A stretch of 60,552 nucleotides of DNA from a virus (lineage: Duplodnaviria; Caudoviricetes). The DNA lies in IMG/VR virus record IMGVR_UViG_3300029267_000655, positions 1-60,552 of that record; one strand, given 5' to 3'. The position numbers were made by a program, and so were the translations under genes. Positions within the stretch are counted from its first letter, which is position 1. The number at the start of each line of letters is the position of its first letter. The notes under the pieces are model-generated. The model had not been told where the DNA came from, searched no databases, and saw nothing but the letters and a program-made list of their open reading frames with translations. This document shows, piece by piece, positions 3,214 to 56,289 of the stretch.

Positions 3214-3298
3214 ATAAGTCGAAACACTCCTTTGGGAGTGTCTGTCCTACGTAGGTACTAGGGCACTGATGAGACAACCTAATTGTGGAGAAGTTACG

Positions 3299-4909
3299 AT
3301 GGCTAAGACTACCGCTAAGATGACTCGCAAGACCACCCGTAAGTCTGCTGACGCTAAGGCAGTCAAGACACCGAAAGTCGCAGACGCTCTGAAGAAAAGT
3401 CGAGCGAAGAAGACCGCTCCCCACATCATCGTCGGAGCACTTGCGGGTACTGGCAAGACCACTACCGCTATCGGTGGTCTCAACTGGTTGCGGGGTATCC
3501 AACCCGAGTACACACCGAGTCCTCAGCAACAGGCTGTGTGGGATGCTCTCGCAGCAGAGCAGTACAAGGCTGTCTGTTGCGTAGCGTTCAACAAGAGCAT
3601 CGCAACGGAGCTTCAGTCGAGAGTACCCGAAGGTGTTGATGCTATGACGATGCACAGTATGGGTATGAAGGCTGTGCGTGAGCAGTTCGGTCGGATTCAA
3701 GTCTCGTCATGGCGAGTCACGGACATCATCAGCGAGATTACCGAAACCGACGTTCGAGAGCTTCGCAAGTTCAATAACGACATGCTCAAAGGCACTGAGA
3801 GGCTTGTCGGTCTGTGCAAGCTCTCGCTCATCGACGAAACCGACACAGACTTAGAGAACATCCTAGACGGTCTGTGTTCTCACTACGATGTAGAACTCAA
3901 TGGCAGCAGAGATGAAGTCTACGAACTCGTTCCAAAGGTTCTTGCTCGCTGCAAGGAAGTTGACAAGGACAAGCGAATTGACTTCAACGATATGATCTGG
4001 TTGCCGGTAGTCTTGAGCCTTCCGGTGAAACGCTATGACTTGCTGATCGTTGACGAAGCTCAAGACCTTAACAAGTGTCAGCAGGCTTTGGCTTACAAAG
4101 CGGGTAGTCGTCTGATGTTTGTCGGAGACGTTAACCAAGCCATCTACGGGTTTGCAGGGGCAGACGCAGAGAGCATGAACCGTCTTGAGGCTGAGTTAGG
4201 TGCGACTGATCGTGGTGTTACGGTACTCCCTCTTACCGTTACCCGTAGGTGTAGCAAGGCAGTAGTAGCCGATGCTCAAGCCTACGTACCGACGTTTGAA
4301 GCCCACGAGTCAAATCTCACCGGGTCTGTCTCGGAAGTCAGCGAAGACCGATACGTAGACCTAGTTCAAGACGGTGACATGATCGTCTGCCGTGTGAATG
4401 CTCCTCTCGTATCGCAGTGCTTCCGGTTCATCGCAGATGGTCGTAAGGCTAATATCCAGGGCAGAGACATCGGTCAAGGTCTCGTCCGGTTGATCAAGAA
4501 GCAGAAGTGTGCTGACGACGATATGGGCGGCTTGATGGATAAGCTGTCTACTTGGTACTTTCAGGAGTGCCTCAAGGAAGCAGCGAAGAAGAACCCTAGT
4601 GATGCTCGCCTGATCGCTCTCGAAGACCGCTACAAGTGCCTTACGGTCTTCTGCGATAACGCTACTACGGTTAGTGGAGTCATCACTAAAATCGAGGACG
4701 TATTCAGCGACGATAAGGGCGAAGGTATCCGGCTCAGCTCTATCCACAAAGCCAAAGGGCTTGAGTCTGATCGGGTCTTCTTCTTCCGTACCAAAGACGC
4801 TCCTTGTCCTCACCCGATGGCTAAGCAGGCTTGGGCAAAGGAACAGGAACGTAACTTGTGTTACGTAGCCATCACACGAGCCATCGAGTCACTGTACTAC
4901 GTCAAGTAG
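3299..4909 (+). CDS. UvrD/Rep-like superfamily 1 helicase with a Lys-rich N-terminus
   Basis: ALAGTGKT, IVDEAQD, VGDVNQAIYGFAGA, SSIHKAKGLE and YVAITRA motifs. GGAG RBS before ATG 3299. Confidence 0.9.
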   Translation: MAKTTAKMTRKTTRKSADAKAVKTPKVADALKKSRAKKTAPHIIVGALAGTGKTTTAIGGLNWLRGIQPEYTPSPQQQAVWDALAAEQYKAVCCVAFNKSIATELQSRVPEGVDAMTMHSMGMKAVREQFGRIQVSSWRVTDIISEITETDVRELRKFNNDMLKGTERLVGLCKLSLIDETDTDLENILDGLCSHYDVELNGSRDEVYELVPKVLARCKEVDKDKRIDFNDMIWLPVVLSLPVKRYDLLIVDEAQDLNKCQQALAYKAGSRLMFVGDVNQAIYGFAGADAESMNRLEAELGATDRGVTVLPLTVTRRCSKAVVADAQAYVPTFEAHESNLTGSVSEVSEDRYVDLVQDGDMIVCRVNAPLVSQCFRFIADGRKANIQGRDIGQGLVRLIKKQKCADDDMGGLMDKLSTWYFQECLKEAAKKNPSDARLIALEDRYKCLTVFCDNATTVSGVITKIEDVFSDDKGEGIRLSSIHKAKGLESDRVFFFRTKDAPCPHPMAKQAWAKEQERNLCYVAITRAIESLYYVK

Positions 4910-19624: not shown

Positions 19625-19841
19625 TACTTCTACCCAATAGTCTTTGAGCTGTCTCTGTTCCCGCCTCTCCTCCTGAGAAGAAGAGTAGTGTCAGAATCTC
19701 AGTCTCGTCGAAGTCGTTTGCTGTTAGATAGAGTATGACAGCTAGGATAGCTAGACGAAGAAGACCCCACATAGGGTGATGGTGATTGTTAGTTAATTGA
19801 CTCACCCTATGCTCCTTAGTGTTTTGGTCTTGCTGGGTCAC
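19617..19841 (-). CDS. Small membrane protein, holin candidate
   Basis: Hydrophobic segments WGLLRLAILAVILYL and ILTLLFF. Confidence 0.45.
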   Translation of the reverse strand: MTQQDQNTKEHRVSQLTNNHHHPMWGLLRLAILAVILYLTANDFDETEILTLLFFSGGEAGTETAQRLLGRSNG

Positions 19842-20436
19842 TATCGAACTTCACTGTTTTTGGTCTAACTGATCCGACATATAGAATTGGTTTACCGTCT
19901 TTAACCAACTCACTTGCTCTAGCTACTGCTTCCCATTCTTTTCCGGTTGCTATGTTCTGTACCCTGTAAGACTCTGAGTAAGGTCTAGACTGGGTAACCT
20001 TTGTTCTCCAACTTTCGTACACTCTGTCTTGATCATCTTTATGGATAGCCCGAAGCCATCCGTTTCCAAGCATCTTCTCTCTAGGTAGACCGAATGACCT
20101 ACATAGCCAACCGTTAGCATGAATACAGTTGCCATCTAGATCACAATAGAAGATTCCAATTTGGAGTGCGTCACATAGTATCTCGTCTACTATGTCTAAC
20201 TCTGCTTTGGTCTCTCTTGTAAGCTCTGCTGCGGTCTCTGCAATCTCCAAACGTGTGATGATTTCTTTCGCAGCTTCGGAACCGAATTCATCCCGAAGAT
20301 CAGAAGCAAATTGAACACTACGAATGATAGAAATAACGTGCTTCCGCCAAAGAAGAGCGACACCACCAGCAGCAACACCCCAGCTAAGAAGTCTTTCTCC
20401 AACATCAAACCATTCACCTATGCTAGAAATATCCAC
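19816..20436 (-). CDS. Membrane-anchored PAS-domain protein
   Basis: N-terminal TM, coiled coil, then GIFYCDLDGNCIHAN...LGNGWLRAIHKDDQDRVYESW (PAS_3-like). Confidence 0.8.
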   Translation of the reverse strand: MDISSIGEWFDVGERLLSWGVAAGGVALLWRKHVISIIRSVQFASDLRDEFGSEAAKEIITRLEIAETAAELTRETKAELDIVDEILCDALQIGIFYCDLDGNCIHANGWLCRSFGLPREKMLGNGWLRAIHKDDQDRVYESWRTKVTQSRPYSESYRVQNIATGKEWEAVARASELVKDGKPILYVGSVRPKTVKFDSDPARPKH

Positions 20437-20463: not shown

Positions 20464-20640
20464 TTAATCAGCGTGAATAACTATTTTCAGGTCTCTTCTC
20501 TTAACCGGAAAAGTATCAGACTCACTACCTGTGTAGACTACGAAGTAACCGTAGTACTCTCCAGCTACGTCTACGTCTGCTGATTGGAAGTCATAGGTAA
20601 CCTTACCGTTACTGACGTCAGTTACTCTGAGTTGTATTAA
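20464..20640 (-). pseudogene. Start-less remnant of a BppU-N/Ig-like virion protein
   Basis: Open frame LIQLRVTDVSNGKVTYDFQSADVDVAGEYYGYFVVYTGSESDTFP...* with an in-frame TAG directly upstream and no ATG/GTG/TTG near its 5' end. Confidence 0.6.
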
Positions 20641-53709: not shown

Positions 53710-53733
53710 AACCTCTCTCAGCAGTAGTAGTAG

Positions 53734-53806
53734 TGCTCCGGGTAGGACTCGAACCTACAACCAAGACATTATGAGTATCCTGCTCTAACCTTTGAGCTAC
53801 CGGAGC
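53734..53806 (-). tRNA. tRNA with CAT anticodon, probably Ile2 (lysidine type); Met not excluded
   Basis: Cloverleaf GCTCCGG...CTCATAA...GGTTCGAGTCC...CCGGAGC-A. Confidence 0.85.
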
Positions 53807-53813
53807 TAAGTAG

Positions 53814-53887
53814 TACTCCCATCAGGACTCGAACCTGAAACCTACGGTTTAGAAGACCGTTGCTCTATCCTATTGAGCTATGGGAGC
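53814..53887 (-). tRNA. tRNA-Arg(TCT)
   Basis: Cloverleaf; anticodon arm ACGGT-CTTCTAA-ACCGT. Confidence 0.92.
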
Positions 53888-53891
53888 CTAG

Positions 53892-53973
53892 TGGTCGTGG
53901 AGGGACTCGAACCCTCATGCCCGAAGGCACTAGAACCTAAATCTAGCGTGTCTGCCAATTTCACCACACGACC
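53892..53973 (-). tRNA. tRNA-Leu(TAG)
   Basis: Cloverleaf with long variable arm; anticodon arm CTAGA-TTTAGGT-TCTAG. Confidence 0.92.
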
Positions 53974-54146: not shown

Positions 54147-55238
54147 CTACTCTTCTGATAACTTATCCCAACCGACACTCTTATAGAGCTTGCCGTTATC
54201 TAGACTCTTGAGGTTAACCGTCTTCTTGGATTTGAAAACAGCAGTGACTTCGCATTCAACAGACTTGCGAGCTTTTGGAGGCTTGAAGAGATATACATCA
54301 CCTTTCTCCGGTTCAATCTCCTCTTCCTCTTCTTCTTCTTCTTCAGTCTCTTCTTCCTCTTCGTCTTCTTCTCCTAGTTCGTTATCAGGAGAGTCTAGAG
54401 CTTCCGCTACTGCTGCCCAAGTGTTGTACTCGTTAGGGTCAATACCCGCTTCTTCACACATAGCATTAAGAGTAGCCTCAGCTTCTTCGTCTCCTTCGTC
54501 TGCTAGCTCTGCCAACTCACTAGCAGACTGTTCTTCTTCTTCTTCTTCTTCCTCTTCATCTTCCTCTGGCTCGTCTTCTTCGCTCTCATCTTCCTCCTCT
54601 TCTGTTTCTTCTTCGTCTGTCTCTTCCTCTTCGTCTTCGTCTACTACTTCGTCATCTTCGGTTTCGTCTTCTACTTCGTCGTCCTCTTCTCCTTCTTCAA
54701 AGTCTTCAATAAACTTACCCCACTGCTCATTAACTCTTGGGTTGGGGTATTGTTTAGTAGCTTCACCCTTCCAAGTACGGAACGAAAAGTGAGGAGCAGA
54801 CTCCTTCAACTCTTCGCAGGCTTCTTCCAAGTCGTCTAGTTCAAGACCTTCGGTGTCTAGTCCTAGTTTGCGAAGAGTATTAAGCACCCAAGCCAAGTGA
54901 TCATCAAACGTAGCTCTCGAACGATTAGGAGTATCGTGAAGAGGTTCAATGATACTAGTTCTAAGACCTTGGACCGGAACCTTAGTACCGTCATCCATAG
55001 TTACTGTCTTAGGACTCACTACCGTACCGGCAGCGTAGAAGAACAGTTCACCTTTGTTGTCGCCTTTCTTGTATGTGTCGAACTTAACTTCAACCAACTG
55101 AGCTATACCGTGTTCAATACCCTCGGGCAGTGACCCACCACCGGGTAAGACCGTCTCATCTCCTTTGTGTGCATCAAATGCCTTACGTCCTTTACTACCC
55201 AACTTAGCTGCCAGCGATGTCTTAGCCTTCTTTACCAT
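54147..55238 (-). CDS. Putative ssDNA-binding protein with a very long Asp/Glu tract
   Basis: Follows the Sak4-like ATPase; beta-rich N-terminal domain plus acidic linker. Confidence 0.6.
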   Translation of the reverse strand: MVKKAKTSLAAKLGSKGRKAFDAHKGDETVLPGGGSLPEGIEHGIAQLVEVKFDTYKKGDNKGELFFYAAGTVVSPKTVTMDDGTKVPVQGLRTSIIEPLHDTPNRSRATFDDHLAWVLNTLRKLGLDTEGLELDDLEEACEELKESAPHFSFRTWKGEATKQYPNPRVNEQWGKFIEDFEEGEEDDEVEDETEDDEVVDEDEEEETDEEETEEEEDESEEDEPEEDEEEEEEEEEQSASELAELADEGDEEAEATLNAMCEEAGIDPNEYNTWAAVAEALDSPDNELGEEDEEEEETEEEEEEEEEIEPEKGDVYLFKPPKARKSVECEVTAVFKSKKTVNLKSLDNGKLYKSVGWDKLSEE

Positions 55239-55428
55239 CTTCGGTTTTGTCCTTGTTGTGTCTGAAACAGATTTGAGCTTTAGGCGTTAGTACTTCAGTC
55301 CTGAATACCTTAATGTGGTCTGGAGCTACTACACCTAACTTGACATAAGACAGTCCAACGTGGAAGATTTTGATTCTTATGTCTTCAGTAATTACCAGCG
55401 TCTCATTCTTCTCTAGTTCTATTTCAAT
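55222..55428 (-). CDS. csrA: CsrA/RsmA-family protein with no canonical start (ATT start, or start-loss pseudogene)
   Basis: IEIELEKNETLVITEDIRIKIFHVGLSYVKLGVVAPDHIKVFRTEV aligns without gaps to CsrA residues 2-47 (E10-T-L, G33, A36-P37, R44, E46). AAGGAGG lies 7 nt upstream of ATT. Confidence 0.7.
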   Translation of the reverse strand: MEIELEKNETLVITEDIRIKIFHVGLSYVKLGVVAPDHIKVFRTEVLTPKAQICFRHNKDKTEDGKEG

Positions 55429-56289
55429 CTATTGTCCTCCTTTGATAAGTTTGTCGATATCCTCAAAAGTCGGGTCTACGATACAGTCTGGATACACTGT
55501 TCCCTTAGGTAACCGGAACTTTGTCGTATAGGTCGCATCAGGAGCAACCCGTAGGCAATACTCTATCTTACCTGTGTCTACAACCCGTTCCTTAACCTTA
55601 CCACCAATCTTACTCTTCTTAACCTCCATCTTGCTTCGTTTGAACGTCTGACAGATATAGTCACAAGCAGGATTCAACCAACCCACAACACTAGGAGTAA
55701 GAGCACTAGCAACGTAAGGAAGAATAACGTCACTATCATCCGAAGGTGTAAAGTCTCTTTCTTGAGCTACGATAACTATGTGCTGCTGAAGGTTGAGTAG
55801 CTGACGTAGACGCTCCTTCATTTGGACTGCTACTTGACCCCAGTCCTGTTGTTGAGCGATACCCCAACTAAGTTGAGCAGGAATCTCGTCTAGCTCTAGA
55901 ACTTCCTTCAGTACCAAGTCTTGAAGACCGCTAGCATGATCTAAAACAATAGTCTGAAACTTCGAGTCTTTAGCATACTCAACCAATTCGTTAAGCTCAC
56001 CAGAACTCTCTAGGTTTACAGATTCGATCTGCTTACGAGCATCCAACGGAACGCTACGAAGCTCACCGCTACCTACACCCCCACTACAGATGATCGTCAT
56101 GATAGGTTTAGGGAAGCTACTCCAAAACGTAGTCTTACCGCTACCACTCCTACCGTAGAGATTGATTTTATAGCCTACGTCTTCAACCGACATAGGTCCA
56201 AGTCTATCTAACACTCCTCCAGACTTCTTATTAGTCGTTGCTGTTGGTTTCTTCTTAGTCGGTCTCTTAACTCTCTTGACTGTAGGCAT
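55429..56289 (-). CDS. Sak4-like (AAA_24) recombination ATPase
   Basis: LYGRSGSGKTT, TIVLD, QQDWG, VAQE, VDPTF. Confidence 0.85.
   Translation of the reverse strand: MPTVKRVKRPTKKKPTATTNKKSGGVLDRLGPMSVEDVGYKINLYGRSGSGKTTFWSSFPKPIMTIICSGGVGSGELRSVPLDARKQIESVNLESSGELNELVEYAKDSKFQTIVLDHASGLQDLVLKEVLELDEIPAQLSWGIAQQQDWGQVAVQMKERLRQLLNLQQHIVIVAQERDFTPSDDSDVILPYVASALTPSVVGWLNPACDYICQTFKRSKMEVKKSKIGGKVKERVVDTGKIEYCLRVAPDATYTTKFRLPKGTVYPDCIVDPTFEDIDKLIKGGQ

Follow-up and report, generated by a model that had tools for sequence, protein, structure and literature searches.

A CsrA-like reading frame without a canonical start codon and with an acidic first strand behind a marine phage ATPase gene

Can a gap between two phage genes that appears to be intergenic hold a regulator of the CsrA/RsmA family, and if it does, where would its translation begin? 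The question is raised by IMG/VR record IMGVR_UViG_3300029267_000655, the 60,552-nt genome of a complete marine phage with direct terminal repeats, which we analysed whole and refer to as the window. On its minus strand, a Sak4-like ATPase gene is followed by a gene for a conserved acidic protein, and a standard listing of open reading frames (ORFs) shows a gap of 190 nt between the two. In agreement with an original prediction made from the letters of the DNA, we find that this gap hides a CsrA-like frame of 68 sense codons, a normal length for the CsrA family, which is missing from the listing because it has no ATG, GTG or TTG codon (0/68). Its first codon is an ATT. We propose that the frame is a divergent phage csrA, translated weakly from this AUU and coupled to termination of the ATPase. 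We give this proposal about an even chance, and weigh it below against a recently inactivated gene and three further alternatives.

The hidden frame belongs to the CsrA family

The 68-residue protein matches the Pfam CsrA family (PF02599) with 43.5 bits against a cut-off of 27 (E 3.2e-11), and the match is ungapped, with residues 5-48 on profile positions 6-49. A separate genome-wide profile search placed a CsrA domain at 55285-55416 with 43.1 bits. The protein also matches PHROG 9500, annotated as "CsrA-like regulator" (E 7.8e-8), and solved CsrA chains, the best being 1t3o (E 4e-4). We consider these matches to be beyond chance because of the hidden Markov model (HMM) E-value and because csrA occupies the same slot in related phages, as described below. 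On this basis the frame is, as far as its sequence can tell, a genuine divergent member of the CsrA/RsmA family, and the CsrA homology first proposed for it holds well above the family cut-off.

Structure prediction gave a partial picture of the same fold. The AlphaFold2 model of the monomer, built from a 38-row alignment, has a mean predicted local distance difference test (pLDDT) score of 76.9 and contains the C-terminal helix along with strands 2-4, but in this single chain strands 1 and 5 do not form. When this model was compared with the PDB by Foldseek, the 13 best rows were all CsrA, RsmA or RsmE, with template modelling (TM) scores of 0.47-0.63 by query and 0.50-0.79 by target and a best E-value that is modest at 3.2e-3 for a very small chain. 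Prediction of a two-copy complex scored 0.16 (mark 0.42), which speaks neither for nor against a homodimer.

Relatives of the protein are distant. A HMMER pass over 1.84 billion representatives returned 31 hits at E <=1e-3, the best at 43.5 bits, and 17 of the 17 nearest hits that were fetched begin with MLV/I-L/F-x-R, the canonical basic first strand. Of these library proteins (P0002-P0032), 18 of the 31 carry two or more CsrA-like stretches, 17 of them being two-stretch proteins of 98-166 aa and one (P0004) a protein of 692 aa with six stretches. Among INPHARED phages there was no match by blastn with the 1.5 kb region or by tblastn with the window protein. A word-index protein search with the window protein yielded no candidate, and pattern scans with it in metagenome, genome and viral contigs found 0 relatives each.

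An ATT codon directly behind the ATPase stop

The ATPase gene ends with Lys-Gly-Gly-Gln-TAG, its stop lying at 55431-55429 on the minus strand. The strong Shine-Dalgarno (SD) motif that had been noted ahead of the ATT can be read in the sequence at 55440-55436, and the 7 nt that separate it from the ATT take in the ATPase stop (Table 1). The ATT is the sole near-cognate codon of the frame that has a workable distance from an SD. The locus resembles genes begun at AUU, such as infC and pcnB, in that it lacks an in-frame canonical start and has an AUU at the proper SD distance. Around the junction, the RNA appears unstructured, with no predicted structure beyond that of shuffles (z 0.29), and an Rfam scan of the window found no Csr-type small RNA. 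Direct reading also bears out the remark that removal of one A here would yield an ATGA stop/start overlap.

That remark invites the suspicion that the real genome carries an ATG and that the record is in error, since the sequence was assembled from a metagenome and the junction could be explained by one surplus A. Five public sequencing runs hold at least part of the stretch, and we compared the contigs of four of them (X1-X4) at the junction. All four agree with the record, with 0 other letters and 0 gaps. The contigs of X1 and X2, which are possible sources of the record, are identical over all 1101 bases compared. X3, from a different study, and X4, from another sample, are not flagged as possible sources; their short contigs were assembled independently, each spans 55318 to at least 55472, and their depth is only 3.2-3.5. 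Contig sizes are equal within X1/X2 and within X3/X4, so each pair may be one data set filed twice. The same allele is nevertheless present in runs filed in 2018 and in 2021, and the site is not a homopolymer. Because the contigs of four runs agree and two of the runs are not flagged as source, an assembly slip at the junction is very unlikely, and the sequencing or assembly error that the original prediction had allowed for is an explanation to which we give next to no credence. A diverged relative may be present in the fifth run (X5, share 0.15). No RNA run is among the public runs listed for the stretch.

Most related phages keep csrA and its ribosome-binding site in the same slot

Scans based on the ATPase yielded 37 loci, 10 of them viral and 27 from metagenomes, with ATPase identities of 36-63%; 6 of the 37 were duplicated between collections, leaving 31 unique ones. 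Comparing the window with homologs in related phages, as the original prediction had suggested, we found a CsrA ORF near the same ATPase in 24 of the 31 unique loci with an HMM built for this analysis. In the remaining 7, csrA was not found beside the ATPase, and in 2 of these the contig breaks off no more than 170 nt from the ATPase stop. An SD motif lies 5-9 nt ahead of the csrA start in all 24 relatives. In 11 of the 24 loci csrA starts no more than 4 nt after the ATPase stop, with its SD in the last ATPase codons, and an SD-like motif in the 3′ end of the ATPase gene is present in 11/11 of these loci and in 0/6 readable loci without csrA. The gene for the acidic protein follows csrA, or the ATPase directly, in 25/25 related loci examined, after a gap of 34-68 nt (17 loci) or with an overlap of 20-80 nt (3 loci) where csrA precedes it. 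From this gene order and SD placement we infer that the window gene occupies a conserved slot in the recombination module of the phage and has an inherited ribosome-binding site. None of the 24 related loci has a frameshift or an internal stop in csrA. At one locus (L004:3888-4124) the csrA slot holds a 78-aa ORF that starts with ATG and has no Pfam match; by eye it has a faint CsrA-like pattern without an R44 equivalent, and it may be a strongly diverged copy.

The position of csrA in these loci also bears on read-through of the UAG, by which the window would make a Sak4 ATPase-CsrA fusion protein. The TAG and the CsrA-like frame are indeed continuous and in the same frame. Among relatives, however, csrA lies in all three frames (0, 1 and 2) relative to the ATPase, whose stop may be TGA, TAA or TAG. 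Moreover, TAG is an ordinary stop in the window, where it ends 26 of 79 crudely called ORFs, and the three phage tRNAs (Met, Arg and Leu) include no suppressor. A fusion would be about 355 aa long, yet 0/31 library hits are near this length, 30 being 57-166 aa and the other being the 692-aa protein with six CsrA stretches. Read-through, which had been put forward as an option, thus finds no support, and we regard it as extremely improbable.

Start codons in the 24 related loci are ATG in 20, GTG in 3 and ATT in 1, so an AUU start is not conserved among orthologues (1/24). In the locus with ATT (L023), the ATT stands in the Met1 column and AGGAG precedes it by 7 nt; reading in frame from the upstream stop, the first canonical start is met only at a GTG in the middle of the domain. 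Its protein scores 57.1 bits against Pfam CsrA. Since a library protein 95% identical to it begins with M, the change in L023 appears to be recent. We also surveyed 80 csrA loci in IMG/VR, of which 75 begin with ATG, 3 with GTG and 1 with TTG, and one has a one-residue extension; the patterns used omit the start codon, and the 80 are the best-scoring of 357 confirmed stretches, so this survey leans to canonical genes. In all, at least 534 IMG/VR stretches encode relatives, as counted by a scan whose pattern begins at Met and is unfit for start-codon counts.

Divergence is confined to an acidic first strand

To place the window protein in its family we used an alignment (A1) of 38 sequences, the window protein and 37 relatives. 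Residue 1 of the window protein falls in the Leu2 column without a gap, which confirms that the ATPase TAG stands in the Met1 column. Where the family has V3, S/T5, R6 and K/R7, the window protein has E, E, L and E, and the L2, L4, R6 and R/K7 columns hold I, I, L and E, so the basic strand 1 of the family is not present. The exchange of R6/R7 for L/E, as first described, is thus seen in the alignment columns, together with the retention of R44 (as R43). Net charge over residues 2-8 is -2 in the window vs 0 to +3 in all other sequences. Hydrophobic residues alternate as they would in a strand (I-x-I-x-L).

The rest of the protein is conventional. The equivalents of the strand-5 RNA contacts V42, R44 and E46 are kept as V41, R43 and E45, and the R and E columns are invariant in 38/38 sequences. 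Leaving Met1 aside, nine columns are conserved in at least 89% of the 37 relatives, and the window departs from them at 3/3 positions in strand 1 and at 0/6 elsewhere (Fisher p 0.012, post hoc), where the equivalents of V30, G33, A36, P37, R44 and E46 are all kept. By these columns the divergence is region-specific and not a uniform decay. Because the departures are confined to strand 1, the acidic strand would have arisen under constraint on the rest of the protein, and the acidic-strand protein must, on this reasoning, have been a working variant for some time. The usual marks of a pseudogene, such as internal stops, frameshifts and uniform residue loss, are absent, with all 68 codons open and 6/6 conserved positions outside strand 1 kept.

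What such a change may do to RNA binding can be judged from published work on the family. Strands 1 and 5 of opposite CsrA subunits build each RNA pocket, with L4 and R44 being critical, and the strongest effects in an E. coli alanine scan were, in order, at R44, V42, L2, I47, V40, L4, R6 and R7 (PMC7652899). Read against these positions, the window protein keeps strand 5 and has lost the basic half of the pocket together with the R6-E46 salt bridge. Because of the acidic first strand without R6/R7, poor binding of GGA RNA is expected in each pocket of a homodimer. The protein would then be more likely to modulate the host Csr system, or to have an altered ligand, than to act as a plain extra CsrA.

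A possible low-level AUU start or a gene recently lost

In the reading we propose, an ancestral ATG would have been lost in a single step, either by a one-base insertion into an ATGA overlap or by a change of ATG to ATT. The first route, an extra A in the overlap, would keep the ATPase stop and fits the ungapped alignment with TAG in the Met1 column; by this route, however, the ancestral SD would have lain just 3 nt from the start, which is below the 5-9 nt of relatives. The second route also fits; the gene would then have had one residue fewer at its N-terminus, and such a change is seen at the Met1 column of L023. Ribosomes would reach the AUU at 55428-55426 by binding the GGAGG 7 nt upstream in de novo initiation, or by re-initiation after termination at the adjacent ATPase UAG, and since UAG and AUU are juxtaposed, termination at the former should feed the latter. 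Output would be low compared with an AUG start and would be sensitive to how strictly the host IF3 acts against non-canonical starts. There is precedent in E. coli, where infC and pcnB start with AUU (10.1101/063800). An AUU was 6-8 times below AUG in one E. coli study, and at the infC junction, where the AUU follows the stop 3 nt later, about half of translation is by re-initiation (PMC3592434).

Could translation begin inside the frame instead, to give an N-truncated product? The frame contains an ATA (codon 3) and a CTG (codon 11), and a canonical TTG at 55427-55425 lies 8 nt from the SD. The ATA, however, is 13 nt from the SD and the CTG has none, and the TTG opens an out-of-frame mini-ORF of only two codons before its stop. 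If strand 1 were missing, the product would also lack a peripheral strand of the interlocked CsrA dimer (PMC7652899). We therefore consider an internal start, whether direct or by way of the mini-ORF, to be very unlikely.

Several observations weigh against a low-level AUU start. In a further E. coli study, AUU gave only 1-2% of AUG (10.1101/063800). The 80 surveyed IMG/VR loci include 0 non-canonical starts, so AUU is not a family habit, and the ATT of L023, seen in a single metagenome contig, may be erroneous. The TTG of the mini-ORF is one base downstream of the ATT and may compete for initiating ribosomes. Within the protein, R6 is present in 37/37 relatives and is Leu here, the nearly invariant V3 is Glu, and the R6-E46 salt bridge has been described as indispensable for the structure and activity of RsmE (PMC6692469). 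The Pfam score of 43.5 is the lowest when set against the six clade members scored (57.1 to 95.9). The gene itself is evidently dispensable in this clade, because csrA was not found beside the ATPase in 7/31 unique loci. Finally, no relative above ~49% identity over the matched domain was found in the 1.84 billion representatives. Of the original suggestion that the frame is initiated at AUU as in infC, the anatomy stands, with an SD and an ATT beside the stop and a known parallel in infC; from this anatomy we infer translation, coupling and low expression, and from the acidic strand weakened RNA binding.

Much of this would equally be expected of a recently inactivated csrA pseudogene, in which the start was lost by one mutation, the frame is still open, and the ATT and SD are leftovers. 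Such a gene would have no canonical start in frame, as is the case here; it would belong to a clade that can do without csrA and would be an outlier among the 80 other phage loci; and it could well have lost R6 and V3 and fallen to the lowest Pfam score. As the SD lies within the coding part of the ATPase gene, it would in any case be retained for some time. The 68 codons without a stop or frameshift speak against inactivation, as does the restriction of the divergence to strand 1, by which the odd strand would predate any decay. Runs filed in 2018 and 2021 also share the allele. Further, by a rough estimate of ours, the start codon would be the site of well under a tenth of the mutations that inactivate such a gene. 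Among the 25 csrA genes of the clade (24 loci and the window), however, both odd cases are ATT-at-start, and no gene has a frameshift or nonsense mutation. Because both oddities are of this one kind, tolerated down-tuning is favoured over plain gene death, which is an argument and not proof. Altogether, we hold a pseudogene to be a serious possibility, though a somewhat doubtful one, and continue to prefer a divergent CsrA made at a low level from AUU.

Neighbouring genes and other features of the window

The coordinates of the features at the csrA locus are collected in Table 1. The 363-aa protein encoded downstream of the CsrA-like frame is marked by very long runs of Glu/Asp and by a basic N-terminus that is conserved; no Pfam family matches it above cut-off, nor does any PHROG family.

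Table 1. Features at the ATPase-csrA junction of the window and in the adjoining genes
Feature	Position	Strand	Remarks
PD-(D/E)XK exonuclease gene	57389-56289	-	directly upstream of the Sak4-like ATPase gene
Sak4-like AAA_24 ATPase gene, 286 aa	55429..56289	-	Pfam AAA_24 62.2 bits; PHROG 124 Sak4-like; C-terminus aligns with that of relatives
Shine-Dalgarno GGAGG	55436..55440	-	7 nt upstream of ATT; formed by the last Gly-Gly codons of the ATPase
ATT, proposed AUU start	55426..55428	-	abuts the ATPase stop; codon 1 of the CsrA-like frame; aligns to the Leu2 column
CsrA-like frame, 68 sense codons including ATT	55225..55428	-	same frame as the ATPase; stop TAA 55224-55222
First strand IEIELEK	55408..55428	-	net charge -2; column counts from alignment A1
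TTG-AAA-TAG mini-ORF, out of frame	55419..55427	-	same GGAGG, spacing 8 nt; direct reading
R43 codon AGG, equivalent of RNA-binding R44	55300..55302	-	invariant column; E45 (E46 equivalent) two codons on
Conserved acidic-protein gene, 363 aa	54147..55238	-	ATG at 55238, 17 nt inside the CsrA-like frame

The window contains a second frame without ATG, GTG or TTG, at 20464-20640 on the minus strand. It has 58 codons and begins at the end of the gene at 21002-20637, in another frame; its match to BppU_N is weak and below cut-off (E 0.0039). A frameshift may link this frame to the upstream gene, or it may be a further case of a non-canonical start. Beside it, in an apparent tail module, a 206-aa protein with a PAS domain (PAS_3 35.2 bits) is encoded at 19816-20436 on the minus strand. 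At 3217-3283 on the plus strand, Rfam recognises a type II hammerhead ribozyme with 47.7 bits (gathering score 37; E 1e-6), which overlaps the start of an ORF at 3269-4909 on the same strand.

Three tRNA genes, for Met(CAT), Arg(TCT) and Leu(TAG), lie at 53733-53973 on the minus strand. In the tRNA-Met(CAT) we read a G1:C72 pair and a weak anticodon stem that lacks three consecutive G-C pairs. By these features, which we take to be the relevant ones, it does not look like an initiator and may be either an elongator tRNA for Met or one of the Ile2 type, so a phage initiator tRNA favouring AUU was rejected as a candidate.

Possible meaning for the phage

Phage copies of CsrA are thought to mimic the host protein. 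An inversion of charge in strand 1 with the fold and strand 5 kept would point instead to antagonism or to a changed ligand. In its most developed form, this idea would make the window protein a natural "anti-CsrA" built on the CsrA fold: its AUU, coupled to an early phage gene, would by design give little protein, and this protein would form single-site heterodimers with host CsrA or act as a decoy in the basic RNA pocket of host CsrA, and would derepress the host Csr regulon during infection. We offer this as a speculation that is unlikely to be correct. If the AUU start is true, its occurrence in a coupled operon would be a rare natural case beyond infC and pcnB and would show that gene callers miss such genes. 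If the gene is dying instead, the locus is a record of how an accessory regulator comes and goes among marine phages of one clade.

Comparison with known systems

In infC, the AUU start is conserved among orthologues and serves autoregulation by IF3, whereas the AUU of the window is a singleton in its family (20 ATG, 3 GTG and 1 ATT in relatives). The likeness to infC and pcnB is in the arrangement, in which an AUU is the only available start, an SD is present and the stop of the upstream gene is adjacent (PMC3592434; 10.1101/063800). The window differs from infC, as its junction is described in PMC3592434, in that stop and AUU are juxtaposed without a spacer.

Many RsmA/CsrA genes of phages are present in GenBank and IMG/VR, for example in Burkholderia phage DC1 and P. 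aeruginosa phage F116 (Campa et al. 2021, PMC8450108), and the window shares with them a CsrA-family gene carried by a phage. Those genes are described there as highly similar to bacterial CsrA, whereas the window gene has no canonical start, an acidic strand 1 and at most ~49% identity to any relative found. Phage CsrA homologues (PMC8450108) and AUU starts are therefore already known, and, set against these accounts, what is new is the combination of a missing canonical start, a juxtaposed coupling and a charge-inverted strand 1 with strand 5 intact. A word search of the open-access literature found no paper on such a CsrA variant, which is not proof of absence.

A model for a heterodimer with host CsrA is given by engineered CsrA dimers with one dead RNA surface (Mercante et al. 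2009, as related in PMC7652899). In the dimers related there the change is R44A in strand 5, whereas the window protein has its changes in strand 1 and keeps strand 5 intact. By analogy, the anatomy of the window protein is compatible with the dominant-negative partner of host CsrA suggested in the original prediction: such a heterodimer would have one intact and one crippled pocket and would have lost the bridging of two RNA sites. FliW and CesT are protein antagonists of CsrA with folds unrelated to that of the window protein, and they resemble the antagonist considered here in that they control CsrA at the protein level rather than via RNA.

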